DNA of 64,000 bases from contig CAYUVV010000002.1 of the NCBI GenBank assembly GCA_964448295.1, forward strand, positions 19,081 through 83,080, written 5' to 3'. Numbering within the stretch: the first letter of the stretch is position 1; each line of letters opens with the position of its first letter. The stretch is from an uncultured Candidatus Saccharibacteria bacterium (GTDB lineage: Bacteria; Patescibacteriota; Minisyncoccia; Phycocordibacterales; JACOZG01). Below are positions 15,023 to 44,504 of this stretch, piece by piece. The translations under genes and the position numbers were made by a program. The notes beneath the pieces are model-generated. The model saw nothing but the letters and a program-made list of their open reading frames with translations, was not told where the DNA came from and ran no database searches.

Positions 15023-16579
15023 TTAGAAGCAGTAAGCTTCGCAAGTGATGCCGCTAGCCGAGTCACGTGAAGTGGCGACGAGAACCCAGTTGCCGGCGTT
15101 GCCGCCGGTGCGGTCAATTTTGCACTCACCATACGGCTCACCCACAACCGCGCCGCTGGCACGATCCACCCGACTTAAGCCACAAAAGTTATAGTTGCCC
15201 ATCGTTTCCGTGTCAGAACTTACTCCGCTGGCTGAGGCCGAGTATTTGGTGGTGGTTAGATTTAAACCGTTATTTTTAACCGCTCCCCAGTTGGTAGTGA
15301 CGCCGTTACTAACTAAGGCTTGCCCGTTTTCTCCCAAGGAGCTGTTGGCATAAAAAGCCAGGTTGCCGGTTGATAAAAAGGTTAAACCTTGTCCGCCACC
15401 AGGAAGAGCGGCAATAATAGAACCAACGTGTCCCGATTCACCGCGTAGGTTACCGAAGCTGATGGCCTTGTTTTGCATGTTTAAGTCTAGCGTCGCCGTA
15501 TGATTCCCCAAATTGTCGCCGCCGGAGCCACCGGAGCCACCAAAACTACTAACCGGGTATTTTCTAATTCCTAGGGCAGGATCGTAGACCGCGATCTGTC
15601 CGGACTGCGGGGGGGTACCGCCTTGGGTTAATTTGTTAATATCCATGCTTACCGTTACCGCGCCCGTTGCTGCCGAAGTGCTTATTCCGGTGCCGGCGGT
15701 CAAGCTTGATACTCCAGCCACACCGCTACCCCCGCCGATCATCTCATCAATACAAGAGATTTGATTGCCGGCTGCGTCCCAAACCATTTTTGTTGTGTTT
15801 GGATCAGCTGTAAAGCATTGAGAATTTATTTTAAGCCACCCGCTACGACAATTATCGGCCACCGTCGGGTCGCCGATGCACACCTTGCCATCGCCAAGAA
15901 CACTAAATTTACTTGCAACCGATGAGATGTTGCCGCTTCTTAGATCAAGTATTTTGGTATTGTTTCCATTGGACAAAGTTTTTACCACCAACCCATCTCG
16001 AGTTGTTCCTGACGGGGCCGCGCCAGAATTTTCGAAATAGGCGACCTTGTCATCGGTTGAAGTTTGAACAACTAATTTTGAGCGATTAGTAAAATTGGGA
16101 TTATCCACCGAATTTCCGTAAAGTCCTATGGCAACAGTTCCTGGTAGAGAAGAGTATTGATTGTTGCCAGACGGCGTTACTGTCCAGCTCCCACTCCCAC
16201 CCCCCAGCTCGGAAATTGACTTGCAAACGGTGCCGGTTAAATCGCAGTACTTGTTGGCCCCAATGTTGCCATTAACACCAAAGTGCAAATTTGCGGGCAG
16301 GACATAGTCAGATTGAGTTATCTTGCCCAACTGCCCCAAGAGAAAACCACCGTAAAGACTATTATTAACTTGCAATGAACCCTTTTTGACTTGTGTATTA
16401 TCGGCCGTATTGATCGGCGGGTTGCAACCCGGGATATTGGGGTCCGTGCACGATGGAGGGTTATTGGGCGGATCAACCCAACCGGTAGTCTGGGCCCAGA
16501 CGGGGACGGTGGCAATTAACGCCAAACCGGCCAGAACAAGGATTAACGCCGCGCGAGAAATTTTTTTAAACTCGATCAT
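15023..16579 (-). CDS. Secreted beta-rich protein with conserved N-terminal Cys motif (C-x6-GC-x-PPI) and C-terminal Cys-rich domain; paralogous at its N-terminus to the 34594 and 36420 proteins
   Basis: Signal peptide MIEFKKISRAALILVLAGLALIATVPVWA. Motif PSCTDPNIPGCNPPINTADNTQVKKGSLQV aligns with the N-termini of the two Hep_Hag proteins. Gly/Ser/Asn/Thr-rich repeats. C-terminal CGLSRV...CKIDR...CEAYCF. Confidence 0.6.
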   Translation of the reverse strand: MIEFKKISRAALILVLAGLALIATVPVWAQTTGWVDPPNNPPSCTDPNIPGCNPPINTADNTQVKKGSLQVNNSLYGGFLLGQLGKITQSDYVLPANLHFGVNGNIGANKYCDLTGTVCKSISELGGGSGSWTVTPSGNNQYSSLPGTVAIGLYGNSVDNPNFTNRSKLVVQTSTDDKVAYFENSGAAPSGTTRDGLVVKTLSNGNNTKILDLRSGNISSVASKFSVLGDGKVCIGDPTVADNCRSGWLKINSQCFTADPNTTKMVWDAAGNQISCIDEMIGGGSGVAGVSSLTAGTGISTSAATGAVTVSMDINKLTQGGTPPQSGQIAVYDPALGIRKYPVSSFGGSGGSGGDNLGNHTATLDLNMQNKAISFGNLRGESGHVGSIIAALPGGGQGLTFLSTGNLAFYANSSLGENGQALVSNGVTTNWGAVKNNGLNLTTTKYSASASGVSSDTETMGNYNFCGLSRVDRASGAVVGEPYGECKIDRTGGNAGNWVLVATSRDSASGITCEAYCF

Positions 16580-16612: not shown

Positions 16613-16960
16613 TTAAAGTGTTTCCAACACCCGTCCGCGTTCGGCCGGAGTAAGTTTGGTTTCCGTCTCGCCGCTTTCGAGGTTGTCGAGCACGCGCGCC
16701 TGCTCGGCGGGCGTGAGTTCGTCACTCGCGCCGCTTTGCCCTTCCAAGTTTTCCAGAATTCGCGCCTGCTCGGCGGGCGTTAAGTTGGCTCCGTACCCTG
16801 TAACAGGCGTTCCCTCGTTATTTTCATTCCCGCTTGTGGCGAGATAATAGGAAACGACACCAATAATTACTAGGACGCCGGCCAGCGCGAGCGCGATCCA
16901 AGCCGCGCGCGGTGTGCGGACGTCCGTTTTAACATCAGCGACATTATTAATCTCATCCAT
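16613..16960 (-). CDS. Small membrane protein with three LTPAEQAR(I/V)L-x-NLE repeats
   Basis: ORF track. One TM segment (AAWIALALAGVLVIIGVV). Tandem peptide repeats are visible in the translation and in the DNA (16660-16800). Confidence 0.45.
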   Translation of the reverse strand: MDEINNVADVKTDVRTPRAAWIALALAGVLVIIGVVSYYLATSGNENNEGTPVTGYGANLTPAEQARILENLEGQSGASDELTPAEQARVLDNLESGETETKLTPAERGRVLETL

Positions 16961-17864: not shown

Positions 17865-18785
17865 TTGCAATATAATGATCTAATGGACCTGACGAAATGG
17901 AAAACTGAATTTCTCGAGTATTTGGAGATTGAACGTGGTCGGAGTTTGCAAACGACGGCCAATTATGACCGCTATTTAAGCCGGTTTTTTGAATTTGCCA
18001 AAATTAAAAGGCCTGCGGAGATCACGGCGGAACTTGTGCGCCGTTATCGTCTCTGGTTGAATCGTCAATCGGCCCCGGGCGCCCACCAGACGCTTAAGAA
18101 AAATACCCAAAATTACCATCTAATTGCCCTACGCTCATTTCTCAAATTTTTAGCGCGGCGCGGAGTTGACTCCCTTTCCCCTACCGAGATTGATCTAGCA
18201 AAAACCGGCGCGCGCGATCTCGATCTTATATCACCGGCCGAGCTCCTGCGTCTGCTTGAGGCGCCTGACGTTTCCACTCCATCCGGCCGACGCGATCGGG
18301 CGATTTTAGAGCTTTTATTTTCTACCGGTTTGCGGGTTTCCGAGCTGTGCGGTCTTAACCGCGACACGATAGATCTAAAACAGGACGAGTTTTCTATTCG
18401 GGGCAAGGGGTCGAAGGTTCGGGTTGTTTTTGTGTCCCCCGCCGCCAAGCGGGCGCTTAAAAATTATCTGGAAAAACTTGATTTGCCAGGAGAGGCGCTT
18501 TTCCCCAATTTTCACCGCGGTGGTGAACGCCTGACCCCGAGAAGCATTGAACGGCTGGTCCGACATTATTCCGTTAAGGCCGGCATTAGCCGCAAAGTAA
18601 CGCCGCATGTCATCCGGCATAGTTTTGCCACCGACCTGCTACGCAACGGCGCCGATTTGCGCTCTGTCCAGATGCTCTTGGGTCATGCCAACATTGCCAC
18701 CACCCAGATTTACACTCACCTGACAGACAAACAGTTGAAAAAGGTCCATTCTCGGTTTCATCGACGGCCACCTGTGGATAACTGA
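17865..18785 (+). CDS. Tyrosine site-specific recombinase XerC/XerD family
   Basis: C-terminal catalytic motifs HVIRHSFAT...LLGHANIATTQIYTH (R-H-R-Y signature). Confidence 0.85.
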   Translation: MQYNDLMDLTKWKTEFLEYLEIERGRSLQTTANYDRYLSRFFEFAKIKRPAEITAELVRRYRLWLNRQSAPGAHQTLKKNTQNYHLIALRSFLKFLARRGVDSLSPTEIDLAKTGARDLDLISPAELLRLLEAPDVSTPSGRRDRAILELLFSTGLRVSELCGLNRDTIDLKQDEFSIRGKGSKVRVVFVSPAAKRALKNYLEKLDLPGEALFPNFHRGGERLTPRSIERLVRHYSVKAGISRKVTPHVIRHSFATDLLRNGADLRSVQMLLGHANIATTQIYTHLTDKQLKKVHSRFHRRPPVDN

Positions 18786-21192: not shown

Positions 21193-21680
21193 ATCAAACA
21201 ATACACCGGCCCCCAGTCTCTCAACATCAAACTGACAGTCTACAATCAAGATGCTTCCCAATCACAAGAAGCCACCAAACGGATCTGGGTGGGGGAGGGG
21301 GTGCGGGCGCTTGGTGTGTTGCCGCTTGATGGTTCCCCGAAAGAAGCCCGAACCGCCGCCATTGACGGCAATCTGGCCTGGGTTCAGCGTCTTAACCCTC
21401 AAGAAATCGTCGCGATTGATATTTCCGACCCCTCTAATCTCGAACGTCTCTTCACTTTCAGCACCTCTCCCCGTGTGGCCTGGTCTTTGGCCGCCGAACA
21501 CGGTCGGATCTATGCCGCCAATGGCGGCGGCGGGTTTGATATTTGGATTAATCCCACTAATCCTCAAACCCGCGCTAAATACAGCTATGACCCCAACGCT
21601 TATGTTGGTAATCGTAGCTACTACGGCGTATTCGTCTTGGCCGATCCTTACAATCCTTATATTCAGGAGACAATAATTAA
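21193..21680 (+). pseudogene. 5' part of a host gene (LVIVD/beta-propeller-like repeat protein) interrupted by the IS1595-family element
   Basis: The frame is open from the yraN stop. It reads ...AIDISDPSNLERLF...RIYAANGGGGFDIWINPT...YNPYIQETIIK and runs straight into the element's left inverted repeat. Its continuation (…TNPDPGPYPGGDIKEGYYRDGVIYWGNYTHDFFTTSTQ*) resumes in frame after the right-hand TSD at 25087-25204. Confidence 0.6.
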
Positions 21681-21836
21681 GGTGACTATCCCTTGACAGC
21701 AGGTACGCTGTGAACTAGGATTGAGAGATGATTTTCGTAAAAATACACTTCCAACTGTGGATAAGATTTTCAAAAACTATATTTCTAGCCATTTTTCAGG
21801 ACTAGTCAAATCGTCTTGGTTTGCTAGAATTGTAGT

Positions 21837-23705
21837 ATGCCTCGATCAAGAAACAGCGAAGTAGATGCATACATTTTTATAAAAGAAACGCTTGAAAGCC
21901 TTGGATGGAATGTAAAAAATCCTGCTCGAAATCCGAATGGACAAGTTTACACCCAAACGGAATGCCAAGACCATCCTGAAATAAAAAAACGCCTTGACAG
22001 GCTCACTCCTGAAAATATAGTGAAATTGTCCGAGACTAAGTTCTGGGTCATCGAATCGAAGAAAGAGCACAAACAACTACAGCAGGCCCTTGAAGAAGCG
22101 AAAAAGGACTATGCGGAAAAGATAAACCAAAGCTCTACGATAAAAGCTGTTCTAATCTCTGGCGTCGCTGGCAATAGGACTGACAGTTATTTCGTTGAGA
22201 ATGAATACTTTGATGGGGTTAAATGGAAGCCTGTAACTATCAACGGAAAGAAGGCGTCGGCTCTTTTGTCGCCCGAAGAAGTGAAGACGATACTTGGTCA
22301 AAACTCCGCTGAGATCAAGGATATAATCATTGACGAAAATCTGTTCTTAGAAAAGGCGGAAAAGATAAACGAGATTCTTCATCTCGGAGCCATAAACAAA
22401 AACTACCGCGCACGAGTAATGGCGGCGATTCTCCTTTCCCTTATAGACGAGACGCCCCCGAATATAGAAGCGGCTCCCGTTACTCTGATGAAGGATATAA
22501 ACTCTCGTGTCGAGAGTGTCCTACAGAAGGAAGGAAAAAGGGATTTTGCCAGCCAAATAATGATTGAGCTTCCACCATCAACAGATAATCATGTGAAGTT
22601 CAAGAAGGCACTCGTTGATACCATCCAAGAATTGAATATCCTCAATATCCGATCCGCGATGAACTCTGGCACCGACGTGCTCGGCAAGTTCTACGAGGTG
22701 TTTTTGAAATACGGCAACGGAGCAAAAGAGATCGGTATCGTCCTTACACCTCGGCATATCACTCAATACGCTGTCGAGATTTTGGATGTGGGGCCGAACG
22801 ATATTATCTTCGACCCTACTTGCGGCACGGGAGGATTCCTCGTCGCCGCGTTCGACTATGTGAAGAAAAAGGCCAGCGAAAAGCAAATAGACAAGTTCAA
22901 GCAAAAAAACATATTCGGTATAGACCAAGAGCCTCCAGTCGTTGCTTTGGCAATCGTCAATATGATATTCAGAGGCGACGGCAAGAACAACATCATCGAG
23001 GGTAATTGCTTCCAAAAGAACCTGATCGCGAGTGGGGACACTGCGAAGTATGTAAGCGAGTATAAGAAAGACGAGCAGGCAATAACCAAGGTACTTATGA
23101 ATCCTCCCTTTGCGCTCAAAAGCAGTGATGAAAAGGAATACAGGTTTATTGATTATGCCTTAAAGCAGATGCAGGATGGCGGTACGCTTTTCTGCGTGTT
23201 GCCTTATTCAGCCATGTCGAAATCGTCGGGCTACGATGAATGGAGAAAGACGCTCGTACAGAACAACACCCTGCTTTCTGTAGTAACTTTCCCCGAAGAC
23301 CTTTTCTATCCGGTCGGTGTCTTTACAGTTGGCATCTTCGTCAAGAAAGGCATACCGCACCCGAAAGGGCAAAATGTCTTGTGGGTTAGGGCCATTACGG
23401 ACGGCTATGTGAAGAAAAAAGGCAAAAGACTGGTACCTGATAGGCCGGTTACAAACTTTCTCTCTGAATCAAAAGAGAATGTCCGATCATTTGTCTCGAA
23501 CCCTGAAATCAAACTAGAAAGCAGGCCGAAGCTCATAAAGGAATCGCCAATCAACTGGACTGACCCGCGCCTTGAATTGGTGCCCGAAGTCTATTTGGAT
23601 GACAATGACATGACAGCCGATGCTGTGAAGAAAGAGATAAAGTATTTGGTCAAGGAGGTCGCCTCGTTCAAAATTAAGTACAGCGATCTATTATACGAGA
23701 AATGA
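21837..23705 (+). CDS. N6-adenine DNA methyltransferase (HsdM-like / Type IIG-like gamma-class), cargo of the IS element
   Basis: SAM motif I FDPTCGTGGFLVAA and catalytic motif IV NPPF (MNPPFALK). N-terminal about 200-aa HsdM_N-like region. AT-rich codon usage unlike the host. Confidence 0.8.
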   Translation: MPRSRNSEVDAYIFIKETLESLGWNVKNPARNPNGQVYTQTECQDHPEIKKRLDRLTPENIVKLSETKFWVIESKKEHKQLQQALEEAKKDYAEKINQSSTIKAVLISGVAGNRTDSYFVENEYFDGVKWKPVTINGKKASALLSPEEVKTILGQNSAEIKDIIIDENLFLEKAEKINEILHLGAINKNYRARVMAAILLSLIDETPPNIEAAPVTLMKDINSRVESVLQKEGKRDFASQIMIELPPSTDNHVKFKKALVDTIQELNILNIRSAMNSGTDVLGKFYEVFLKYGNGAKEIGIVLTPRHITQYAVEILDVGPNDIIFDPTCGTGGFLVAAFDYVKKKASEKQIDKFKQKNIFGIDQEPPVVALAIVNMIFRGDGKNNIIEGNCFQKNLIASGDTAKYVSEYKKDEQAITKVLMNPPFALKSSDEKEYRFIDYALKQMQDGGTLFCVLPYSAMSKSSGYDEWRKTLVQNNTLLSVVTFPEDLFYPVGVFTVGIFVKKGIPHPKGQNVLWVRAITDGYVKKKGKRLVPDRPVTNFLSESKENVRSFVSNPEIKLESRPKLIKESPINWTDPRLELVPEVYLDDNDMTADAVKKEIKYLVKEVASFKIKYSDLLYEK

Positions 23706-24139
23706 AACTCAAAGACATATTCACAATAGAATACGGACAGAGGGAGTATCACTCAAAGGAGGGCCTTAAAAAGGGCAAGACTATCATGATCTCCTCTCAA
23801 TCAACCGATAACGGATGCTACGGATTTTTCGATGTGCCCGTGAGATATAAGGCTCCGTTCATAACGATACAGAGTACGGGAAGCGTCGGCGAGGCTACAG
23901 TGCAGGAGTTTGATTGTTGTGTTGATGATAATTGCCTGATACTCACACCGAAAGAAAAAATGGACTTGACCGAGCTGTATTTCATAGCCGCCGTTCTTCG
24001 ATTAAGCAAGTGGCGTTTCAGTTATGGAGGCAGAAAAGTTACCCCTCCTCGCATCGAGGAGATGGAGATTCCTGACATCAATCCGCCAATTAAGTACGAA
24101 GAGGTCGTGGCGGAATTGTCCGCCGTCCTGAAACGATAA
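23702..24139 (+). CDS. Putative single target-recognition domain (HsdS-like half specificity subunit), translationally coupled (ATGA) to the methyltransferase
   Basis: 145 aa, ITIQSTGSVGEATV pattern reminiscent of Type I S-subunit target-recognition domains. Assignment is tentative. Confidence 0.45.
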   Translation: MKLKDIFTIEYGQREYHSKEGLKKGKTIMISSQSTDNGCYGFFDVPVRYKAPFITIQSTGSVGEATVQEFDCCVDDNCLILTPKEKMDLTELYFIAAVLRLSKWRFSYGGRKVTPPRIEEMEIPDINPPIKYEEVVAELSAVLKR

Positions 24140-24168
24140 AATGAACAAAAAGAAATTCCAAAAACTAA

Positions 24169-25029
24169 TTAGGCTCGCTTCACAACCTGTCCAAGCATGG
24201 CCTCGAAAAGCGAAGCGTCCCCATGACGCTGATTCCAGCGATACACAAACTCATCAACGTAAGACTGCAAATACTTCGGCGAAACAACGCGGTGTGTCCC
24301 GTCCAAAGAACGCTTAAGCAAGCTCCAAAAACTTTCAATCGTGTTGGTGTGGATTTTGCCACGGACGTACTCTTTGACAGCGTGTTTTATGTACTGGTGA
24401 TTGTACCCCTGTCGGGCGATTTGATTGTAAATGTTAAACTCGTCTGTCATAACATTGCTACCTTTTCGTACGGATGAGTTTATGATCGGCTGTATCGTCA
24501 ATGTTTTTACGTTTGGCACAACTGATGCTTTAACTTTTCCAGTACGGCTTGCGATACCAAAGACAGGCGTTTTATTTTCCGCTCCACGGCCACGTTTATT
24601 GTTTCGTCCTTTACCTCCAACATACGTCTCGTCTATCTCAACTGTGCCACTAAACATATTGCCGTTTTGGGCAAAGAGTAATCGTATCTGCTTTGCCATT
24701 CTCCAAGCACACTTATAAGTTACGCCGATCTGGCGTTCAATTTCTTTAGCGGATACTCCGTTACGGCTTGAGGCAAACAAGAAGATGGCATGAAACCAAT
24801 CATGCAGTGACGTAGGAGACTTGTGGAATATGGTGCCAGCGACAGGATGAACAGAATGGCCACACTGACAATCATATCGCTTACGACCCTCTATGAGATG
24901 ATGGCTGTTCTTTTTGCCACAGTCGGGGCATTTATAGCCCTTTCCGTAGCGATTAGTAAATATAGCTTGTAAGCAGGCGTTATCGTCTGGGTAATCCTTA
25001 TTGAAGTCCTTTATGGTATACTTTTTCAT
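24169..25029 (-). CDS. IS1595-family (ISXO2-like) DDE transposase with N-terminal zinc ribbon
   Basis: N-terminal C-x2-C...C-x-C (YKCPDCGKKNSHHLIEGRKRYDCQCGH). Central DDE region (DEFNIYNQIARQGYNHQYIKH...E). The ORF track starts at TTG 25047; Met-7 (25029) is the likelier start. Confidence 0.85.
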   Translation of the reverse strand: MKKYTIKDFNKDYPDDNACLQAIFTNRYGKGYKCPDCGKKNSHHLIEGRKRYDCQCGHSVHPVAGTIFHKSPTSLHDWFHAIFLFASSRNGVSAKEIERQIGVTYKCAWRMAKQIRLLFAQNGNMFSGTVEIDETYVGGKGRNNKRGRGAENKTPVFGIASRTGKVKASVVPNVKTLTIQPIINSSVRKGSNVMTDEFNIYNQIARQGYNHQYIKHAVKEYVRGKIHTNTIESFWSLLKRSLDGTHRVVSPKYLQSYVDEFVYRWNQRHGDASLFEAMLGQVVKRA

Positions 25030-25078
25030 ATACAGACAGTCTAGCAAATAGGCTACCTGCTGTCAAGGGATAGTCACC

Positions 25079-25204
25079 ATAATTAAAACCAATCCCGACC
25101 CGGGCCCTTATCCGGGCGGCGATATCAAGGAGGGCTATTATCGTGATGGCGTAATTTATTGGGGCAACTACACCCACGATTTCTTCACCACCTCAACACA
25201 ATAA
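25079..25204 (+). pseudogene. 3' part of the same interrupted host gene (resumes in frame after the TSD)
   Basis: Removing the element and one copy of ATAATTAA restores ...QETIIKTNPDPGPYPGG...TSTQ* as one continuous frame. Confidence 0.55.
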
Positions 25205-34593: not shown

Positions 34594-36441
34594 GTGGCCG
34601 TTTGTTATAATTATTATCAAATCAAAGTGATAATTATGATTCACACACAATCGGCGAAATTTAAATTATCAATGGTCGTTTTAATATTTGCTCTCGCACT
34701 GTGGTTTGGCAGCGTGGGTACTGGGTGGGCGGCGTGGGCGCGGCCGGTGAGCTCGCCCACCGCTTGCGTCAACGGCGATCAGGGTTGCGATCCGCCGATC
34801 AACATATCGAACGCGGCCCAAACGAAGCAGGGCTCACTTGGTATCTCCAACGTGCTGGCTGTTTTTAATGCCGCTTATGCCAAGCAGTTGGCCACTGGCT
34901 CTGGGTTTTTTGACGGTTCGGCGACACTCGATCCTAACGTTGCTCTTCACGTTGACGGCAATTTGCGTTTGAAATTTGGCAGTCCGCAGGCTGGGGATGT
35001 GTTGGTTGCGGCCGAGACTGATGGCACGCTCGGCTGGGAAGATATTAATGACGAAATGCTATGGACGCGCGCCACGGCGGACACGAACGACATTGATATT
35101 TACAACACCGCCGGCGGGGCCGTTGGCGTTCGCACCGGCAATATTGCGTTAAATGACGGCTTGACGGTGAGGGGGGCGCTGGTCCGGTATGACGCTACTG
35201 CGAGCACTTTAACCGGCAACATCGAGACCCACGTTAATTTGGGTAACAACAGTACTACCGGCAACTCTACCAGCGGTTTGTATCCAACAGTCGGCGGCGG
35301 GGACAACAATACGGCGAGCGGGGATTACTCGACGGTGGGCGGCGGCCAGTCCAATTTCGCTACCGGTAATTACTCTTTTATTGGTGGCGGGAGCAACAGC
35401 GCTCATGGTGATTACGACACGGTGGTTGGCGGGGTGGCCAGTGGGGCTGTTTTGCCGACGGTGAGCGGTAGCGTTGGTGGCTACAATTTTCTCGGCGGTG
35501 GCGATAATCTTGATGCTTTTGGCCAGTACAACGTTATACTGGGTGGATTAGACAACAAGATCGGTCAAGATGTTAATAACCGAGCCGATTTTTCCGTCGT
35601 TGGCGGTGGCTCTGGCACCAACACTGTGTATAGCGATTATGGTTCGATATTGGGTGGTAGCAACAACGTGTTAAGCGCTTCGGCGGATTATTCGGTCGTC
35701 GGCGGCGGTTTTAGCAATCAAACTGAATCTCCTCACTCAATAATCCCGGGCGGTGAAAATAACGGAATTGGTTTGGCTAGTCCCTATAGTTTTGTCGGCG
35801 GTAAGGATGCCAACATCGTTGACAACGCTCCCGGAGCGTTCGTGTGGGGCGGCGCGGGCGGGGCGACGGTGGCGACGTCGAATTCATTTGTGATTCATCC
35901 CAACGCCGGGCCGACGGAGGGCTATGTGGGTATTGGTACTGCCGCGCCCACCGCCAAGCTTGATGTGAACGGCAATGTGCGGATTCGGGGCTCGACCGCT
36001 AAACCGCCAGCAGCCGGTTATGTTTTAACGGCGGCTTCAGACAACGGTGATGCCTATTGGGAATCGCCAACAGCGCCGGTTGGGGCTAAGCCGGGGGAAG
36101 GGATTATCACTGTTCGCAATTACTGTTCCGGCACTCCCTTAATCGGCGGCTGTGATGTTGCTTATCAAATCCCTAGTTGCCCGTCAGGTTGGATGGCAAG
36201 CGCGGTGATGTATGAAAAATATGGTTCTCAATACAACCGTGTGGTAACTTGCCACACCGACGCCAATGTCCAAGTGATGACACTGGTTGGTCTAAACAAC
36301 GGCTCTAATCCGGCGCCCAGTTGCCCATCCGCTGATTGGACGGCATGGCCGTCAAGCGGCGTTTGGACTCCCGCTTCTGGTAGTGGCGCGGTGCCTACCG
36401 GCCTTAATCAGGCGCGTCATTGCTACAAGCTAAATACTTAA
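34594..36441 (+). CDS. Secreted adhesin-like protein with Hep_Hag/YadA-head-type repeats (N-x-A-x-G-x-x-S-x-V-G-G), conserved N-terminal Cys motif and C-terminal Cys-rich domain
   Basis: Signal peptide (likely start at Met15, MIHTQ...). N-terminal TACVNGDQGCDPPINISNAAQTKQGSLGIS. Repeats such as NTASGDYSTVGGGQSNFATGNYSFIGGGSNSAHGDY. Overlaps the next gene by 22 nt. Confidence 0.7.
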   Translation: MAVCYNYYQIKVIIMIHTQSAKFKLSMVVLIFALALWFGSVGTGWAAWARPVSSPTACVNGDQGCDPPINISNAAQTKQGSLGISNVLAVFNAAYAKQLATGSGFFDGSATLDPNVALHVDGNLRLKFGSPQAGDVLVAAETDGTLGWEDINDEMLWTRATADTNDIDIYNTAGGAVGVRTGNIALNDGLTVRGALVRYDATASTLTGNIETHVNLGNNSTTGNSTSGLYPTVGGGDNNTASGDYSTVGGGQSNFATGNYSFIGGGSNSAHGDYDTVVGGVASGAVLPTVSGSVGGYNFLGGGDNLDAFGQYNVILGGLDNKIGQDVNNRADFSVVGGGSGTNTVYSDYGSILGGSNNVLSASADYSVVGGGFSNQTESPHSIIPGGENNGIGLASPYSFVGGKDANIVDNAPGAFVWGGAGGATVATSNSFVIHPNAGPTEGYVGIGTAAPTAKLDVNGNVRIRGSTAKPPAAGYVLTAASDNGDAYWESPTAPVGAKPGEGIITVRNYCSGTPLIGGCDVAYQIPSCPSGWMASAVMYEKYGSQYNRVVTCHTDANVQVMTLVGLNNGSNPAPSCPSADWTAWPSSGVWTPASGSGAVPTGLNQARHCYKLNT

Positions 36442-38297
36442 AAATGCCTCGGCGGCTTTTGGTTTTTGGCGGTTTGGCAATAACAGCGGGAGCGTGGTTT
36501 TTTGCTGGCCAACCAGCGGCGGCGGATTGGGTTCCGCCACTTGATTACCCGCCTTTTTGCACCACGAGCCAACCCGGCTGTTTTCTTCCCATTGAGCCGT
36601 CGGGTATTTCCCAATTGAAGTTGGGATCGCTGGGAGTAAGTTCGCTTAACCTGCACAACCGACCCAATACGGCCGACAATTTCGATTTTTACGCGAGCGT
36701 TTTAGGTGTTGGTAACAATTTTATTAACAGCACCAATGGCGCGCCCAAGTACCCACTCGACGTCGAGGGCAATGTTCGGATCGAGCCGGGCGGGGGGGCG
36801 GTGCCGGTCGGGACGGCGCTCGAAGTTCTTCCTAACGGGGTGGACCCCGATGCGGGTGCTTTGGTTGGTTGGGGGAGCAAATATTTTTCTCTTTGGAGTT
36901 CAGCCAGCAACAGCTCGGCCAACAACGGCATTTATAATACCGACGGCGGTGGGGTGGGAGTGAGAACGGGCAACGCCAACCTCGTTAATGGTTTGACAGT
37001 GATGGGGGCGCTCGTTCGTTATGGCGGGACCGCGTTCGTGAATAACCTTTCCGGTTCGCCAACCACTCAAGTTAATTTGAGCACTCAAGGGCAAACCGGT
37101 GGCCAATATTCTTCTCTGCGCGGCGGGTATTTGAACCAAGCGACGGCCAATTATTCCACCGTGATCGGCGGTCGCTCCAATCAAGCCACTGGCGCCAACT
37201 CTTTTGTTGGTGGCGGGCAGGGTAATCGCGCCGTTGGCGTTTACTCGTCGGTGGTCGGTGGTAGTTCCAATCAGGCCAACGGCAATCGTTCGTTTGTTGG
37301 TGGTGGGCGGTCGAACATTGCCTCGGCCCTCGGGACCTATTCCGCGGTGGGTGGTGGCCAATCAAACGTGGCAAGTGGCGCGGGGGCGGTAGTGCTCGGC
37401 GGCCAATCAAACACCGCGAGTGGTGCGAGCTCGGCCGTGCTTGGTGGACGGAGCAATATCGCGAGCGGTAATTATGCCGCCGTGCTCGGCGGCCAATCAA
37501 ACACCGCGAGCGGGATTAATTCGGTCGTGCTCGGCGGCCAGAATAACACCGTGACCACCGCTTACGCCGCCGCCGGTGGCCGCTTAATGCGGGTTGGTTC
37601 GGTGGGGACGTTCGCTTGGGGAAATAATCGCGCTGAGATCGCCGCCAACACCGCCAACTCATTTATTGTACAACCTGATTTCGGCGCCGGTTCCGGCGCC
37701 GTGCCATCTTGGGGTTATGCCGAAGGAGCGATGATGATCGGCACCTCCACACCCTTTACGGCCGGTTACGATGTTCGTCTAAATGTTGATGGGCCGATAG
37801 TGATTCGAGGTGTTACCGGCGCCCTACCGCAGGTTGGCGCGCGATTGACGGCGATTGACGATGCAGGCAGAGCGACCTGGCAAATGCCCCCGGCCTCGCC
37901 GCAGACCACCTACGGCGGCTCAGTTTTTTATATGCGGCGCCAGGACCAAGCTGGCGATCCGATTTCCTGTCCGGCTTATTGGTGCGATGCGAGCAATGGA
38001 GCCGCCGGTTGTGCCGGCACTCCTGGCCAGCCGCCGGCCGCCCAGCCAACAATGACGGAAAAAAGTGGCGGTTTCTCCAACAGCGTGCGGGTTTGTTATC
38101 GCGACGATAAGCGAGTAAGGGCGGTGATGACTACCGCTGAATGTGTGCTTGGGTGCGGTGGCAGCGAAAACGCTCCGCCTAATTGCCCGAGCGGTTTTAC
38201 ATCGGTTTATTCCAACTATAATCAGGGTGGTGAGTATCTTTTGGGAAACTTAATCAAGACCCGCGTCTGTTTGAGTACCGGTTATAACACGCCATGA
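36420..38297 (+). CDS. Second secreted Hep_Hag/YadA-head repeat protein, paralog of the upstream gene; stop overlaps the pilB start (ATGA)
   Basis: Signal peptide. N-terminal PFCTTSQPGCFLPIEPSGISQLKLGSLGVS. Long run of ATGANSFVGGGQGNRAVGVYSSVVGGSSNQANG... repeats. C-terminal CPSGFTSVYSNY...RVC. Confidence 0.7.
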   Translation: MLQAKYLKMPRRLLVFGGLAITAGAWFFAGQPAAADWVPPLDYPPFCTTSQPGCFLPIEPSGISQLKLGSLGVSSLNLHNRPNTADNFDFYASVLGVGNNFINSTNGAPKYPLDVEGNVRIEPGGGAVPVGTALEVLPNGVDPDAGALVGWGSKYFSLWSSASNSSANNGIYNTDGGGVGVRTGNANLVNGLTVMGALVRYGGTAFVNNLSGSPTTQVNLSTQGQTGGQYSSLRGGYLNQATANYSTVIGGRSNQATGANSFVGGGQGNRAVGVYSSVVGGSSNQANGNRSFVGGGRSNIASALGTYSAVGGGQSNVASGAGAVVLGGQSNTASGASSAVLGGRSNIASGNYAAVLGGQSNTASGINSVVLGGQNNTVTTAYAAAGGRLMRVGSVGTFAWGNNRAEIAANTANSFIVQPDFGAGSGAVPSWGYAEGAMMIGTSTPFTAGYDVRLNVDGPIVIRGVTGALPQVGARLTAIDDAGRATWQMPPASPQTTYGGSVFYMRRQDQAGDPISCPAYWCDASNGAAGCAGTPGQPPAAQPTMTEKSGGFSNSVRVCYRDDKRVRAVMTTAECVLGCGGSENAPPNCPSGFTSVYSNYNQGGEYLLGNLIKTRVCLSTGYNTP

Positions 38298-40048
38298 CGG
38301 CCGACAACGAACGGCTAAAAGTTTTTCTCCGCGATGCCGGCTTAGTAGGGGAGAAGGATTTGACGGCCCTGATCGAGAAAGCGGAATCATCCGGCCAGCC
38401 GCTCGATCAGGTACTCCTTGCCAGCGGCAAGGTCTCGGAAGACGAGTTCCGGCGCCTGCACGCCTATCTCCTCGGTATCCCTTTTATCAGTCTACGGAAT
38501 TTGAAGGTGCCGCGCGACGTTCTTTTTTTGATTCCGGAACCGATTGCCCGTCGGCACAACATCGTGGCTTTCAATCGCCGCGGTGAGGTGCTTGAGGTGG
38601 CAATGCTTGATCCAGAGGATCTCGCTTCAATCGAGTTTATCAAGAAAAAAGTTGGTTTGAAAATCCAGTCGCGGTTAACGGACACCGAGTCCATCCGCAA
38701 CCTCCTCCTCCAATACCAGAAAAGTTTGAAAGCCGAATTTGGCGACATCATTCAGCGCGAAACGGCAGCGATCGAGACGAGCACCGCGCGGGGCGGAGCG
38801 GAGCTTGAGGCCAGCCCGAGCGAACTGAAAAAATTGGCCGAGGGTGTACCCGTCGTTAAGATCGTCGACACCCTTTTGTCGCACGCGATTATCCAAAAGG
38901 CGTCCGACATTCATCTTGAGCCCTACGAAAAAGAATTGGTGGTGCGCTATCGCATTGACGGCGTGCTCCACGACGCGATGATTTTGCCGATAATATTGGC
39001 CGCCGGTCTGACGGCGCGAATTAAAATTTTGGCCAACTTGCGTCTGGACGAGAAGCGTTTGCCACAAGATGGCCGTTTCAAGATCGAGGCGCCGGAACGG
39101 GTGTCGTTTCGCGTTTCCGTTTTGCCTACGTACTATGGCGAGAAGGTGGTAATGCGTTTACTGCCGGATACGGTCGAGGGGTTTACTTTGGAGCAATGCG
39201 GTTTTCACGGTGGCGGTTTAGAGCGCTTGCACGAGGGGATGAATTATAAAGCCGGGATGATCCTTGTGACGGGCCCGACCGGTTCGGGCAAATCCACCAC
39301 GCTCTACACCATTCTTGATATTTTGAATAAGCCCGACGTCAACATTTCCACGATTGAAGACCCGATCGAGTATCAGATCAAGCGGATTAACCAAACTCAA
39401 GTTAAGCCGGATATTGGGCTGACATTTGCCGCCGGCCTTCGATCGTTGATGCGTCAAGACCCCGACATCATTATGGTGGGCGAGATCCGCGATGAAGAAA
39501 CGGCGAATCTCGCCATTAACGCCGCCCTCACTGGCCACCTCGTGCTCTCGACCCTGCACACCAACTCGGCGGCGGCCACCGTGCCGCGTTTGCTTGATAT
39601 GGGCGCGGAGGCCTTCCTTTTGGTTTCTACCCTTCGGGTCGTGATCAGCCAGCGTTTGGTGCGCAAATTGTTGCCCACGCGGGAAAGTTATTTCTTAAAC
39701 AAAACGGAAACAAAAATATTGGGCGAGAAGGTTGATCTGGGGCGCGTGCTTGAGGCCTTGCGGAGAGAGCGAGTGGTGTCGCCGGACGCCACCTGGGAAA
39801 AAATCCCCTTTTATCGTCCCAAGCCGTCCGACGAATCAACAGACGGTTTTGCTGGGCGGGTGGGGATTCACGAGGTGATGAAAATTTCGCTCGCGGTGCG
39901 CGAGCTGATTCTTGCCGGCGCGAGTCATGACAAGATCGAAGCGCAAGCCAAGCAAGAAGGAATGTTTACTATGCTCGAAGATGGAATTTACAAAGCGGCG
40001 CAGGGTATTACCAGTTTGGAGGAGGTTTATCGGGTGGTGTCAGAATAA
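38294..40048 (+). CDS. pilB: Type IV pilus assembly ATPase PilB (GspE family) with N-terminal GSPII_E_N domain
   Basis: Walker A GPTGSGKST. Asp box and His box. Typical PilB N-terminus. Confidence 0.9.
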   Translation: MTADNERLKVFLRDAGLVGEKDLTALIEKAESSGQPLDQVLLASGKVSEDEFRRLHAYLLGIPFISLRNLKVPRDVLFLIPEPIARRHNIVAFNRRGEVLEVAMLDPEDLASIEFIKKKVGLKIQSRLTDTESIRNLLLQYQKSLKAEFGDIIQRETAAIETSTARGGAELEASPSELKKLAEGVPVVKIVDTLLSHAIIQKASDIHLEPYEKELVVRYRIDGVLHDAMILPIILAAGLTARIKILANLRLDEKRLPQDGRFKIEAPERVSFRVSVLPTYYGEKVVMRLLPDTVEGFTLEQCGFHGGGLERLHEGMNYKAGMILVTGPTGSGKSTTLYTILDILNKPDVNISTIEDPIEYQIKRINQTQVKPDIGLTFAAGLRSLMRQDPDIIMVGEIRDEETANLAINAALTGHLVLSTLHTNSAAATVPRLLDMGAEAFLLVSTLRVVISQRLVRKLLPTRESYFLNKTETKILGEKVDLGRVLEALRRERVVSPDATWEKIPFYRPKPSDESTDGFAGRVGIHEVMKISLAVRELILAGASHDKIEAQAKQEGMFTMLEDGIYKAAQGITSLEEVYRVVSE

Positions 40049-40051
40049 TCA

Positions 40052-41266
40052 ATGAAATTTAAATTTCGCGCAAAAAATCAAGCCGGAGCGATGGTGGAGG
40101 GTGAGCGAGAAGCGGCTGATCGTTTGGCGCTTGCCCGCGAGTTGCGCCCCGGTGGCTTGACGCTGTTTTGGGCCGAACCCGTCGCCGCACCAGTTGGTTG
40201 GCAAAAACTGGTTGCTCGTTTGACCTTTGGCCGCGTTAAACTCAAAGACAAAATTTTGTTTGCTGGCAACCTGTCGTCAATGCTAGAAGCTGGGTTGCCG
40301 CTCGCGCGAACGCTTGATGTGATTGGGCGTCAAAACACCAACAAGGTGTTTCGGCCAATTCTCGAAACCTTGGCCCAAAAGATTCGCAACGGCGAGAGTT
40401 TTAGTCAGGCGCTCGGTTCTTTTCCGGAAACTTTTCCGGCAGTGTTTGTGGCGATGGTTGCGGCTGGCGAAGAGTCGGGCAAATTGACGGAAGCGTTGGG
40501 AATTGTGCGCCGGCAAATGGAGCGAAGTTACAATCTGCGTCGGCGCGTGCGCGGGGCGATGCTGTACCCGCTGATCATCGTCATTGCCATCGTCATTATC
40601 GCGGTGTTGATGATGATTTTCCTCGTGCCGACACTCACTGGTTTGTTCACCGAACTTAAGGTTGATTTGCCCGTGAGTACGCGAGTAGTGATCGCGATTA
40701 GCAATTTTCTTGCCGGTTACCCGCTAATTTTTTTCCCCAGTTTAATCTTGGTGTTCGCCGCGGGTTGGCGTTTGAGTCGAACGCGTCGCGGCAAGCGTTT
40801 TCTGGCGAGCGCCTGGTTGCGTTTGCCGGTGATCCGCGACATCACGCGCCAGCTAAACTCGGCCGTGATTATGCGCACCCTGTCTTCCTTGCTCGCTTCG
40901 GGCGTGAGTATGGTGGAAACGATTAACATCACGCGCCAAGTGGTGCCTAACCCGTTTTATCAAGAGTCGCTCAATCAGGCGGTGCTCGAAGTAACGCGAG
41001 GTCAGCCATTATCAAAAATTTTTCGCGATTATAACCGGATTTATCCGCCGCTCGTGGGCGAGCTTGTGGAAGTTGGCGAGGAGACGGGCGATTTGCCGAC
41101 CTTGCTCCACAAGGGCGCTCTGTTTTACGAGGGCGAGGTTAATCAGTTGACCAAAAATTTGTCTACCGTGATCGAGCCGGTGCTGATGGTGTTCGTCGGT
41201 TTGGCGGTCGGATTTTTTGCTATTTCGATGATTTCCCCGATTTATTCGTTGTCCAGTAGTTTTTAA
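40052..41266 (+). CDS. pilC: Type IV pilus platform protein PilC (GspF family)
   Basis: Two GspF repeats. Polytopic. Confidence 0.85.
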   Translation: MKFKFRAKNQAGAMVEGEREAADRLALARELRPGGLTLFWAEPVAAPVGWQKLVARLTFGRVKLKDKILFAGNLSSMLEAGLPLARTLDVIGRQNTNKVFRPILETLAQKIRNGESFSQALGSFPETFPAVFVAMVAAGEESGKLTEALGIVRRQMERSYNLRRRVRGAMLYPLIIVIAIVIIAVLMMIFLVPTLTGLFTELKVDLPVSTRVVIAISNFLAGYPLIFFPSLILVFAAGWRLSRTRRGKRFLASAWLRLPVIRDITRQLNSAVIMRTLSSLLASGVSMVETINITRQVVPNPFYQESLNQAVLEVTRGQPLSKIFRDYNRIYPPLVGELVEVGEETGDLPTLLHKGALFYEGEVNQLTKNLSTVIEPVLMVFVGLAVGFFAISMISPIYSLSSSF

Positions 41267-41737
41267 ATGACGAGCAGTTACCGAGGATTGACGGCGGTGG
41301 AACTTCTCGTGGTGGTGGCGATTGTCGCGCTTCTCGCGACGGTAGTGATTATTCCGTTTCGTCGTTTTTACGAAGAACAATCTTTGCGGGCGGCGGCGGA
41401 AACGGCGTTGGCTTTTCTGGCGGAAGCGCGCGCGGCCACTCTGTCTTCGGCGGGCACGGTGGGCGAACAATACGGAGTTCAGTTTGAAAGTGATCGGCTG
41501 ATTAAATTTGCCGGCACCACTTATGGCGGTTTAGGGGCAAACGACGTCGAATATTTGTTACCCGACGGAATAGAACTGACGGGGCCCAGTCTCTCAAGCG
41601 GCGGACGCGAGATTGTATTTGCGCGGCTGACGGGCGCGGCGAGCGCCATCGGCACCATTACCTTTCGTCTGGTCTCCAATCACGGCCGCTTTATCACAAT
41701 CAGGGTTGAACAATGGGGGGTGGCTTATTTAGAATAG
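41267..41737 (+). CDS. Type IV prepilin/pseudopilin (class III signal, G|LTAVE)
   Basis: RGLTAVELLVVVAIVALLA matches the prepilin cleavage/methylation motif with Glu at +5. Confidence 0.8.
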   Translation: MTSSYRGLTAVELLVVVAIVALLATVVIIPFRRFYEEQSLRAAAETALAFLAEARAATLSSAGTVGEQYGVQFESDRLIKFAGTTYGGLGANDVEYLLPDGIELTGPSLSSGGREIVFARLTGAASAIGTITFRLVSNHGRFITIRVEQWGVAYLE

Positions 41738-42222: not shown

Positions 42223-42739
42223 AATGTTTAAATTTATTCATCGTCGCTCCGCCGCTGGCTTCACTCTGCTTGAGGCCTTGATCTATGCCGCCCTGACGAC
42301 GATTTTGCTCACGGCGACCATAACACTCTTTCTCTCTTTTTCTCGCACCTTCGCTGATTATCGTTTAGGCCGGGCACTCAACCACTCGGCTCGGATCACT
42401 CTCGAATCGTTTGCGCGCGAGGTGCGGCGGGCGGCGAGCGTTGATCTTGGCCAGAGCACTTTTGCGAGTCATCCCGGGCGGTTGGTGTTAAACGATGCTC
42501 TCGGGCATACCCAGGCCGATTTTACTTGGCAAGACGGGACGATTTTCTTAGCGACGGATGGTGGTGCTATGGCATCCACGACGGCCGCCCGAGTGACGGC
42601 GACGAATGTTGTTTACCACTACTTAAGTTCCAACGCGTCGACCGCCGTTCGTCTGGAATTGACCCTCACGGCGAACCAGGGCGATTTAATTAAGAGCGAA
42701 AACTATAGCGCCACCGCGGTTTTGCGCGGTGCCTATTGA
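42212..42739 (+). CDS. Type IV pseudopilin/minor pilin (G|FTLLE)
   Basis: AAGFTLLEALIYAALTTILL. Confidence 0.75.
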   Translation: MTVRMFKFIHRRSAAGFTLLEALIYAALTTILLTATITLFLSFSRTFADYRLGRALNHSARITLESFAREVRRAASVDLGQSTFASHPGRLVLNDALGHTQADFTWQDGTIFLATDGGAMASTTAARVTATNVVYHYLSSNASTAVRLELTLTANQGDLIKSENYSATAVLRGAY

Positions 42740-44504
42740 CCAAACTATGCGAAAAACCGAATTAACAACACGCGGCGGCCAAGTAATTTTGGCGACAGTG
42801 TTGGCTGTGATTATGGCGGCGACGGTAATGGTCGGCGGTTTGGCCTGGCCGGTGGTGCGCGAGTTTAAGGCGGCGCGCGAGGTTTATCAATCGCGAGCCA
42901 GTTTTTTCGCCGCTGAATCTGGTTTGGAAGATGCCTCGTTTCGCATCAAGCGCGGTTTGCCTTACTTATCCGCTTATACGCTGGCAGTGGGATCAAATCA
43001 GGCGGAAATCCGGATTGAGGGAACTGGCCACCTTCGTACCGTGCAATCGGTCGGCGAGGCTGCCACGCGCTTCCGGCAGTTGGAATCCAATCTTAGTCTC
43101 GACGAGACGAGCGCCGAATTTTTCTACGGCGTGCAGGTGAGCGATGGCGGGGTGCAAATCGCCAATAACGCGCGCGTTTTGGGCAACGTTTATTCCAACG
43201 GTAATATTATTGGTAGTAGTAGTGGTTCGGCGTTTATCTCGGGTGACGCGGTGGTGGCCGGCGGCTTGAATTACCCGCCGAACGTTAATTTCGCCGCTCA
43301 CAACAACGATCAACTGTTCGCCAATCTTAATTCGCAAGAGGATTTGGCCCAACCCTTTGTGGCACCGGTGAGCGGCGTCCTGTCTCGGGTTTCGGTGTAT
43401 CTCGCCAAGGTTGGTAATCCCAACACCATCACACTTAAAATTGCCGCTAATAGCGCCACTGATGGTGGTACGCCGGGTGGAACCATCAGCGGCGGTTCGG
43501 CGTCTGTCGCCGCCGCGGGAGTTGGCACCACGCCTTCTTGGGTGCATGTGGCGTTTGCTTCACCACCAACGCTGGTTGCTGGCACCAAATATTGGATCGT
43601 GTTGGACGCAAGCACGGTGAGCGCGATTAATCATTGGAATTGGCGCAAGGATAATAGTACGGGCGAGTCGGGCAGTAATACTTATAAATCATGGAGCAAT
43701 ACTGCCCGGAGATGGTCATCGCCCGGCACCGGTTTTCTCGCTCATCAAGTGTGGATCGGTGGGGCTAATACCCGAATTGAAAAAGTCACAGTTGGGGATG
43801 CTAACACTGGCACCGCCCGAGCGAACCAATTTGAGAGCGTTGTTGTTCATGGCGCTAGTTGCCCCAACAGTTACTGCGTAGTTGATAATCCACCACGCGC
43901 TGAATTGCCGATTTCCGACGGAACGATTCAGGATTGGCGCGATGCGGCGCTTTTGGGCGGAACCTGCGCCGCTCCTGTTTGCGACGCTGGTGGCAATTAC
44001 CACTTATCTAATGGCGCGAGTGGTAGTTTGGGACCTCTGTATGTCCCCGGCGATTTGGAGGTGGACAATAACGCCACCCTTACCCTTACAGGCACAGTGT
44101 GGGTGCGCGGCAATATTGATTTGTCTAATAATTGCCGTCTTAATCTTGATTCTGGTTATAGCCGCAATTCTGGCGTTTTGCTCGCCGATGGTAAGATCAC
44201 GGTTTCCAATAATTGCGGCCTTGATGGCTCGGGCGATCCCGACAGTTATTTAATGTTGCTGTCGGCGCTCGACGCGCCGAGCGAAGACGCGATTGTGGTG
44301 GATAACGGCGCGACGGGTGTAATTTATTATGCCGGCAAAGGTCGAATCCGTTTCTCCAATAATGCTTATGCCAAAGAAGCGACGGCCTACGGTTTGACGC
44401 TTGATAATGGCGCGACAGTCGAGTACGAAAGCGGGCTAGCCAACATCAACTTTACTTCCGGCCCCGGGGCCTCATTTGAATTACTTGATTGGTATGAATA
44501 TTAA
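42729..44504 (+). CDS. Large pilus-associated protein (591 aa), N-terminal TM helix but non-canonical prepilin motif; beta-helix-like repeats, possible tip adhesin or PilX/PilY-type
   Basis: TTRGGQVILATVLAVIMAATVMV lacks Glu at +5. Gly/Asn/Ser repeats (NNARVLGNVYSNGNIIGSSSGSAFISGDAVVAGG). Last gene of the pilus operon. Confidence 0.5.
   Translation: MPIDQTMRKTELTTRGGQVILATVLAVIMAATVMVGGLAWPVVREFKAAREVYQSRASFFAAESGLEDASFRIKRGLPYLSAYTLAVGSNQAEIRIEGTGHLRTVQSVGEAATRFRQLESNLSLDETSAEFFYGVQVSDGGVQIANNARVLGNVYSNGNIIGSSSGSAFISGDAVVAGGLNYPPNVNFAAHNNDQLFANLNSQEDLAQPFVAPVSGVLSRVSVYLAKVGNPNTITLKIAANSATDGGTPGGTISGGSASVAAAGVGTTPSWVHVAFASPPTLVAGTKYWIVLDASTVSAINHWNWRKDNSTGESGSNTYKSWSNTARRWSSPGTGFLAHQVWIGGANTRIEKVTVGDANTGTARANQFESVVVHGASCPNSYCVVDNPPRAELPISDGTIQDWRDAALLGGTCAAPVCDAGGNYHLSNGASGSLGPLYVPGDLEVDNNATLTLTGTVWVRGNIDLSNNCRLNLDSGYSRNSGVLLADGKITVSNNCGLDGSGDPDSYLMLLSALDAPSEDAIVVDNGATGVIYYAGKGRIRFSNNAYAKEATAYGLTLDNGATVEYESGLANINFTSGPGASFELLDWYEY

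Follow-up and report, generated by a model that had tools for sequence, protein, structure and literature searches.

PilY1/PilC-type adhesins are large, Sec-exported non-pilin proteins encoded beside minor pilins, and are thought to sit on the pilus tip complex and to mediate adhesion from there. In type IVb pilus systems, the homotrimer TcpF of Vibrio cholerae hooks onto the trimer of the minor pilin TcpB through its flexible N-terminus (PMC9565799), and the N-terminal extension of CofJ of enterotoxigenic Escherichia coli (ETEC) binds CofB (PMC6048534). For Saccharibacteria, a study of type IV pili proposes a large minor pilin, PilX2, as the adhesin, and not Sec-exported fibres (PMC11623550). 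Here we describe a short Cys-containing module that follows the signal peptide of three secreted fibre-like proteins in a 64,000-nucleotide stretch of contig CAYUVV010000002.1, from an uncultured Candidatus Saccharibacteria bacterium (positions 19,081 to 83,080; the window). Neither this N-terminal module, which looks lineage-specific, nor its partner gene has been described before, and the module is probably the end that fastens these fibres to the attachment apparatus of the cell. The more specific reading that we favour, tentatively and at somewhat less than even confidence, is that it forms the cell-proximal docking and assembly base of Patescibacteria-specific, Sec-exported variable fibre adhesins, many of them with trimeric-fibre domains.

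The first of the three proteins, p15023 (15023..16579, minus strand), is a secreted, fibre-like protein encoded by a 518-aa open reading frame (ORF) and is composed of a signal peptide, the module, a Gly/Ser/Thr-rich body and a C-terminal domain with 4 Cys; its module, W34-V71 (16367..16480, minus strand; WVDPPNNPPSCTDPNIPGCNPPINTADNTQVKKGSLQV), scores 55 bits against the family profile (E 5.5e-16). The second, pA (34636..36441, plus strand, ATG at 34636), is a 601-aa secreted fibre protein and the first gene of a pilus operon, and contains in order a signal peptide, the module (W34-S71, 34735..34848, plus strand; WARPVSSPTACVNGDQGCDPPINISNAAQTKQGSLGIS; family-profile E 2.7e-19), beta-roll repeats, a GIGT..KLDV motif and a C-terminal domain with CPSGW...C motifs. 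Its tandem paralogue pB (36444..38297, plus strand, ATG at 36444; a 617-aa secreted fibre protein) carries the most divergent of the three copies (W29-S66, 36528..36641, plus strand; WVPPLDYPPFCTTSQPGCFLPIEPSGISQLKLGSLGVS; family-profile E 8.5e-16). When the six reading frames of the window are searched with a hidden Markov model (HMM) of the three copies, no fourth is found. Over their full length pA and pB are paralogous (35% identity, E 6e-61), and their common N-terminus is therefore not an independent event; the likeness of p15023 to either is restricted to the signal peptide and module.

An earlier note on this DNA had recognised the module from three peptides, all of which are in place (PSCTDPNIPGC...SLQV, 16367-16456, minus strand; TACVNGDQGC...GIS, 34759-34848, plus strand; PFCTTSQPGC...GVS, 36552-36641, plus strand). 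In each protein the module directly follows a basic and hydrophobic N-terminus of Sec type (judged by eye), over which AlphaFold2 predicts a helix (residues 2-30 of p15023 and 7-27 of pA). The Cys module described there is real, but the conserved unit starts 8-9 residues earlier than had been supposed, at an invariant Trp (W34 in p15023 and pA, W29 in pB). The Cys-rich C-termini that the note attributed to all three proteins do contain Cys in every case, but the end of p15023 is of a different type from that of pA and pB.

A profile of the three N-termini, of the kind the earlier note had proposed, was run by exhaustive HMMER search against 1.84 billion cluster representatives and recovers a large family in public protein clusters, with 558 proteins at E<=1e-3 and 17 at E<=1e-10. 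From these 558 matches 150 were inspected, with subsets of 141 pattern-fitting, 137 measured, 136 domain-scanned and 111 aligned members. The module nearly always lies at residues ~25-75, starting at or before residue 55 in 139 of the 141 top pattern-fitting matches, in carriers of 70 to 1559 aa. Column identity averages 56% over the 45 residues of the module (111-sequence alignment) and 4% in the full-length carrier alignment. Conservation thus reaches well beyond the three paralogues to which, as the earlier note had allowed, it might have been confined. This also decides the simplest objection, that there is no functional unit at all and that the likeness reflects the mere paralogy of three proteins or low-complexity chance. 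The full-length paralogy of pA and pB speaks for it, but the objection is refuted by the 558 clusters reached from a three-sequence profile, the unalignable carriers and the fixed position and spacing, and we give it practically no credence. Word-indexed homologue searches returned no match with either the 3-sequence or the 111-sequence module alignment, and with full-length p15023 returned only p15023 itself.

Nor is the module a named domain, as the earlier note had surmised: Pfam, NCBIfam and PHROGs are silent on it for the window proteins, the module region of 136 family members has no Pfam or NCBIfam match (Pfam-A 2025, NCBIfam 20.0), PHROGs v4 yields no match to the module, and no PDB sequence matches the module profile even at E<=10. 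No description of the motif was found in the published literature. Its apparent restriction to one lineage, another suggestion of that note, agrees with the eight carriers named in their source, on which the taxonomic range of the family rests: all eight are from Patescibacteria (Vogelbacteria 3, Falkowbacteria 3, Parcubacteria 1, 'Patescibacteria group' 1), and all eight are annotated 'hypothetical protein'. A scan of GTDB genomes gave one relative in a Candidatus Paceibacterota metagenome-assembled genome and one in a 4.6-kb contig binned as Bdellovibrionales, and a metagenome scan gave 51 loci, several out of 0.1-0.2 um 'Hain' groundwater samples; the 51 came from a narrow alignment and are skewed to the canonical GNPGCDAP variant. 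The loci discussed below, designated by L numbers, are short metagenome contigs with mechanically called ORFs. Two scans of 2.9 million viral contigs (IMG/VR) gave pattern matches and no confirmed module relative. A phage or viral origin was considered and rejected, given this result, the lack of any PHROG match, the Sec signal peptides and the housekeeping neighbours of the module genes, which include nusA, ppa, tig, clpP, rny, tpiA and pgk. The Bdellovibrionales contig (L003, MEQJ01000026.1, 4.6 kb, labelled 'Bdellovibrionales bacterium RIFOXYD1_FULL_53_11') encodes an RNase Y that scores 667 bits against that of the window and holds a cassette of small transmembrane (TM) protein, module protein and WSSNIGW protein resembling the Paceibacterota ones; it is probably a Patescibacteria contig that was binned wrongly.

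The family consensus is [AD]-W-[TS]-x-P-x3-P-P-x-C-x2-G-x-P-G-C-[DN]-[AP]-P-[ILV]-N-[VIT]-[SG]-x3-Q-x-K-x-G-x-L, in which W, C, C and Q are invariant and P, P, P, G, P, N, K, G and L are conserved at 90% or more in the alignment of 111 modules. The spacing from the Trp to the first Cys is 10 in 134 of 137 members. Between the two Cys the usual form is C-x5-G-C, 6 residues apart (128/137), and not the longer C-x6-G-C of the earlier note; p15023 has the rarer 7-residue variant (9/137). Outside the module the Cys count is even in 127/137. Relative to the Trp, Ala occurs at -2 in 85/137 and Ala or Val at -4 in 79/137, suggesting an AxA signal-peptidase-I site whose cleavage would leave [A/D]-W as the mature N-terminus. 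With an alignment of 136 sequences, AlphaFold2 predicts residues 31-70 of p15023 at a pLDDT (predicted local distance difference test) of 77-84 and as neither helix nor strand, so that in the model this segment is a confidently predicted irregular coil.

Several more familiar identities for this N-terminus were tried and set aside. The module proteins are not type IV pilins or pseudopilins: they have no N_methyl match, unlike the pilin-like genes of the pilus operon, which do match, and their hydrophobic segment precedes the AxA site and is followed by the Pro-rich coil. Nor are they lipoproteins, since the first Cys lies 10 after the Trp, about 11-12 residues past the predicted AxA site, and there is no lipobox Cys at +1. 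A possible N-glycosylation sequon at N-[VIT]-[SG] was dropped because Gly is about as frequent there as Ser and position -2 is Pro.

The strongest association of the module, which the earlier note had not noticed, is with a small gene upstream. For p15023 this gene (16613..16960, minus strand) lies 33 nt upstream on the same strand and encodes a small, 115-aa single-pass membrane protein whose TM segment is N-terminal and in which three repeats follow each other as LTPAEQARILENL, LTPAEQARVLDNL and LTPAERGRVLETL. Of the 50 dereplicated module genes with room upstream, 34 have on their own strand, ending <=200 nt before them, an ORF of 70-145 aa whose product has a TM segment at the N-terminus; of the other genes in these loci that encode 150 aa or more, 15/308 do. 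Among 32 small upstream proteins, 24 are matched by an HMM of the repeat. As a control, among 860 other small ORFs there were 3 with at least two repeat-HMM matches, and all three turned out to be upstream of module genes, one of them leading to a second, truncated cassette in L004. The pairing of small gene and module gene is kept in loci whose fibres have only the module in common. Since positive charge precedes its TM segment, the small protein may have its repeats on the outer side.

No family above cut-off was found in Pfam for the small upstream proteins. Identity with the Spy/CpxP (LTXXQ) chaperones was rejected, there being no LTXXQ Pfam match at E<=10 for ten small proteins and no Spy/CpxP chain at E<=10 in a search of the PDB with a profile of eight ectodomains; the likeness to the LTXXQ family is confined to an L[TS]xxE/Q helix-start pattern. 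A match of the L003 small protein to 'Unstab_antitox' (27 bits, via the repeated helix) was likewise taken as motif-level likeness only.

Two further kinds of gene adjoin the cassette of small TM gene and module gene in other loci. Secreted proteins with paired 'GW.WS.NIGWI.F' repeats do so in seven unrelated loci, twice in L004 (L003 3399-4619; L004 7251-9668 and 17422-19710; L007; L013 5902-6417; L017 827-1477; L021 3578-4528; L060 8898-9902), and none is present in the window; this recurrence suggests a three-gene unit of GW.WS.NIGWI.F gene, small TM gene and module gene. In L009 (9501-9905), L050/L051, L058 (9634-9990) and L063 (9655-9978) a coiled-coil protein of 107-248 aa without a TM segment, ending in ...EEF..LEKRV..LE, is encoded directly upstream of the module gene, and either substitutes for the small TM protein or stands between it and the module gene.

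The second association is with type IV pilus genes. The stop codon of pB overlaps the start codon of pilB (ATGA, 38294-38297), which encodes a T2SSE/MshEN ATPase (38294..40048, plus strand; Pfam T2SSE 7e-121) and is followed by pilC for the T2SSF platform protein (40052..41266, plus strand; Pfam T2SSF 3.1e-56), by three small pilin-like genes (41267-41737, 41713-42222 and 42212-42739, plus strand; N_methyl 1.6e-4, 6.9e-3 and 1.1e-4) and by a gene for a 591-aa protein with an N-terminal hydrophobic segment, as read from its N-terminus (42729..44504, plus strand). Judged by gene order, the genes of 41267-44504 are a minor-pilin or tip-complex set, and their order is repeated in L059, L062 and L063. 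At the other end, an AT-rich gap of 145 nt separates pA from the divergent nusA. The arrangement of nusA (opposite strand), one or two module fibres, pilB-pilC-minor pilins and, beyond these, tpiA-pgk is found in the window and in L018, L057, L058, L059, L062 and L063, with PilB of the six other loci 59-71% identical to that of the window. The fibres in this slot range from 182 to 907 aa and are mostly each preceded by a small gene; they resemble pA in essentially the signal peptide and module only, two having also a short GIGT-type stretch. The nusA-pilB slot is thus conserved and its cargo variable. Pilus genes adjoin module genes also in L013 (pilin and prepilin-peptidase-like genes, by eye) and in L005, L011 and L027 (a pilB-like gene), and pilB lies within 5 kb in 5 of 8 loci that were selected solely for their long available sequence. 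The co-occurrence with type IV pilus genes that the earlier note had proposed to look for therefore holds in about half of the long loci and fails for p15023, whose gene is 18 kb from the pilus operon, and for about ten other long loci, which like that of p15023 have no pilus gene within 7-10 kb. Because the pilus-positive loci fall in only three synteny classes, these counts are not independent and inheritance explains part of them.

This neighbourhood speaks for a different partner, the tip of the pilus itself: the three modules of a fibre trimer would hook onto the minor-pilin tip complex, the fibres would be displayed on or exported by the pilus, and p15023 and other fibres from genes outside the operon would serve this pilus as alternative tips. 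In seven genomes one or two genes for module fibres immediately precede pilB-pilC and minor-pilin-like genes, pB and pilB overlap in the window, and the 5/8 length-selected loci with pilB nearby add a further count; no major-pilin-sized, abundant pilin is evident in the operon; and relatives of the p15023 body occupy the slot in L063 (28% over 386 aa, E 1e-22) and L058 (40% over 171 aa, E 1e-17). The module, as a conserved coil beside the predicted mature N-terminus, also has a precedent in the N-termini of TcpF and CofJ (PMC9565799, PMC6048534). However, p15023 and the roughly ten unlinked long loci do not fit easily, the slot occurs in three synteny classes only, so that inheritance accounts for part of the count, and the small membrane-protein partner is left unexplained. 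Pilus cargo in the form of fibres that reach 1414 aa and carry self-cleaving chaperone domains would moreover be unusual, and no sequence likeness to TcpF or CofJ was seen, although no search was aimed at it and the binding peptides fall below the size limit of the PDB search. On balance we consider docking at the pilus tip possible but doubtful.

The comparison with the described systems runs in both directions. Like TcpF and CofJ, pA and pB are Sec-exported non-pilins of a pilus operon, as are module proteins in six other genomes, but not p15023, and the module proteins share with them a short irregular segment at the (here predicted) mature N-terminus as the presumed functional element. Unlike the module, the signals of TcpF and CofJ have no Cys loop, are species-specific and have no known sequence relation to it, whereas the module spans hundreds of clusters; half of the module genes lie outside pilus operons, and the hosts of TcpF and CofJ are Gram-negative bacteria with type IVb pili. 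pA and pB also recall PilY1/PilC-type adhesins in being large Sec-exported non-pilins encoded beside minor pilins, but PilY1 is monomeric and turns a C-terminal beta-propeller to the pilus, whereas the module proteins are repeat fibres with a conserved N-terminus, and neither the window proteins nor the 136 members have a Pfam match to PilY1 or to Neisseria PilC.

The fibre-type domains of many carriers, which the earlier note had missed, are clearest in pB, where residues 219-416 (37098..37691, plus strand), a region with the DNA repeat families D1 and D2, form UspA1/YadA-type head repeats by phmmer search of the PDB (UspA1 3pr7_A, E 1.7e-17; 3ntn_A, E 3.5e-10). In solved structures this head fold is an obligate trimeric beta-roll. 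Across the 136 scanned members, Pfam recognises Peptidase_S74 in 10, Gly_rich_2 in 6, Collagen in 3, and Collar, YadA_head, H_lectin and Lcl_C in 1 each; Peptidase_S74 is the intramolecular chaperone of trimeric tailspikes. p15023 itself has no Pfam, NCBIfam or PHROG match and no YadA/UspA1-type repeats, and its AlphaFold2 model (136-row multiple sequence alignment) has a mean pLDDT of 51. For pA (10-row alignment) the mean is 52, with short regular strands predicted in residues 224-405 (pLDDT 63-80), the part that corresponds to the head of pB, and a Foldseek search of this model against the PDB returned nothing below E=5. A trimeric or fibre character of p15023 and of most other carriers is thus an extrapolation from the shared module and a repeat-rich composition.

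The C-termini vary by type. A motif C-P-x-G-[WYF]-x(10-40)-C occurs in pA (35980-36441), in pB (37900-38297) and in 22/150 members, P0028, P0094 and P0103 among them, and often terminates in ...YxCIKN. A second type, F-C-x-L-S ... W-x-L ... C-x-x-x-C-F, is found in p15023, in the 182-aa protein of L018 and in the 249-aa protein of L005. The end of p15023 resembles that of the L018 protein in pairwise comparison (E 4e-4), and a jackhmmer search with the p15023 C-terminus gave no relative; since a profile search with the L018 C-terminus drifted to signal peptides and low complexity, only this pairwise match and the motif counts were retained. The pattern of the family is a constant N-terminus with variable shaft and tip.

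Such a pattern invites comparison with other fibres. The module proteins resemble trimeric autotransporter adhesins (YadA/UspA1) in the UspA1-type head of pB and in the YadA_head match of another family member, but the polarity is reversed, the conserved and presumably anchoring end of module fibres being N-terminal; the window proteins and the 136 members have no Pfam match to the C-terminal YadA_anchor beta-barrel, and their C-termini are Cys-containing and soluble-looking. Patescibacteria are generally described as having no outer membrane. With phage tail fibres and tailspikes they share a conserved N-terminal attachment end and a hypervariable C-terminal end, as well as the Peptidase_S74 domain in 10/136 and Collar or collagen domains in others. 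In eukaryotes, the N-terminal Cys-rich segments of collectins and C1q and the collagen cystine knot could staple trimeric chains; the module has in common with these a short Cys segment at the end of a fibre, and Collagen repeats in three family members, but no sequence likeness, so that this is an analogy only. The module proteins resemble phage-fibre attachment ends, and perhaps a type IVb pilus secretion signal, yet belong to neither family, nor to the trimeric autotransporter adhesins.

The stapling analogy corresponds to another explanation, in which the module would be a structural cap that only nucleates or staples the trimer at the Sec exit, its Cys forming an intrachain loop or an interchain ring, with no docking. 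This would suit the invariant Cys pair at fixed spacing, the even Cys count elsewhere, the position of the module directly before shafts that are of trimeric type wherever a domain is recognised, and the alternating conservation of Q-x-K-x-G-x-L, as expected of a strand with one buried face. DsbA-like (CxxC) and VKOR genes lie within a few kb of module genes in L009 (6659-8566) and L058 (1-181), and this proximity, which can also be counted for a cap, is consistent with extracytoplasmic disulfide formation in these organisms. But a cap leaves both gene-neighbourhood associations unexplained; the invariant Trp, Gln, Lys and Asn and the four near-invariant Pro, kept across beta-roll, collagen and S74 shafts, exceed the needs of a staple; and a secreted fibre with a cleaved signal peptide would still need to be retained on the cell. 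We judge a purely structural role unlikely. The readings are compatible to the extent that one base could both staple and dock a trimer.

Under the docking and assembly base that we prefer, signal peptidase I would cleave at the conserved AxA, leaving the invariant Trp at or beside the new N-terminus; there would then follow a proline-rich stretch, a loop of 8-9 residues closed by the two invariant Cys, and a first beta-strand (Q-x-K-x-G-x-L) leading into the shaft. As the module is the sole common part of otherwise unalignable fibres, shared cellular machinery would be met at this end and targets bound by the variable C-termini; because the module leaves the Sec channel first, and is linked genetically to two kinds of such machinery, this end would be the cell-proximal base. 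The likeliest direct partner would be the ectodomain of the small upstream membrane protein (the 16613-16960 product in the case of p15023), which may hold or assemble the fibre base at the membrane. The fibre cassette would also be functionally coupled to the type IV pilus, and since it is frequently located within the pilus operon, fibres and pili probably act together in attachment.

Several observations weigh against this assignment. No separate small membrane-protein gene accompanies pA, pB or the L059 fibre, and by the strict criterion 16/50 module genes have none; the small proteins are poorly conserved compared to the highly conserved module, which is unlike a tight one-to-one interface. 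Recognised fibre domains occur in only ~1/6 of the 136 scanned carriers, and the AlphaFold2 monomer models yield no fold for the module beyond the confident coil. Two members have an internal module (P0023, residues 237-280; P0163/L063, 356-396), suggesting that a free N-terminus is not strictly required. Finally, every step of the mechanism is derived from sequence and gene order.

If the ligand were not a protein, the module might bind a chemically conserved component of the envelope, be it the S-layer, peptidoglycan or a secondary wall polymer, in the way that SLH, LysM and CWB domains do in other single-membrane bacteria. High conservation of the module despite variable protein partners, and its place at the cell-proximal end of the fibres, would both suit such an anchor. 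We nevertheless find it improbable: the module has no Pfam or NCBIfam likeness to wall-binding families, a proline-rich coil of 40 residues is smaller than known wall-binding domains, and neither the small membrane-protein gene nor the pilus slot would be explained.

The window has other features too. A diversity-generating retroelement occupies 51970-54477, with a reverse transcriptase gene at 53467-54477 (RVT_1, 6.9e-21) and a 120-nt repeat pair, 83% identical, whose variable copy (52585-52704) lies at the 3' end of a 250-aa ORF (51970-52722) and whose template copy (52972-53091) has A at nearly all the mismatches where the variable copy has another base; no link between it and the module proteins was seen. 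Inverted repeats of 45 nt (21674-21718 and 25041-25085, 84% complementary) flank an N6_Mtase gene (21837-23705), a 145-aa ORF and an IS1595-family transposase gene (24169-25047, minus strand), so that 21674-25085 looks like a transposon carrying a methyltransferase. GC content is down to 0.45-0.49 over about 16-26 kb, and a tyrosine recombinase gene is located at 17865-18785. On the minus strand, 1973-6042 encodes first a protein of 1047 aa, which begins with a hydrophobic segment and is not matched by Pfam, and then a 309-aa protein with a bacterial TSP3 repeat; both are probably secreted, and the module is not present in either.

How Patescibacteria (the Candidate Phyla Radiation, CPR) recognise and hold their hosts is largely unknown; what has been published implicates type IV pili and large minor pilins in the case of Saccharibacteria (PMC11623550). 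The module, some 40 residues in length, provides an easily searched sequence handle on this question and brings to light, in the Parcubacteria group, a large family of variable fibre adhesins that had been hidden, an unnamed family fit for a Pfam or NCBIfam entry that would give a meaningful label to hundreds of 'hypothetical proteins'. The conserved two-gene cassette and the conserved slot in the pilus operon offer candidates for host specificity and a testable protein-protein interface. Beyond this one can imagine, as a speculation that we hold to be rather unlikely, that Patescibacteria mount interchangeable fibre adhesins on their type IV pili, with the module as a universal adaptor by which any of the diverse fibres of a genome, pA and pB in the operon or p15023 and others outside it, would fit the minor-pilin tip complex, and the small protein, usually with three helical repeats, as the factor that loads or holds them by bringing three chains together at the membrane. 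If that were true, the hypervariable cargo of the nusA-pilB slot would be what determines host range in these episymbionts.

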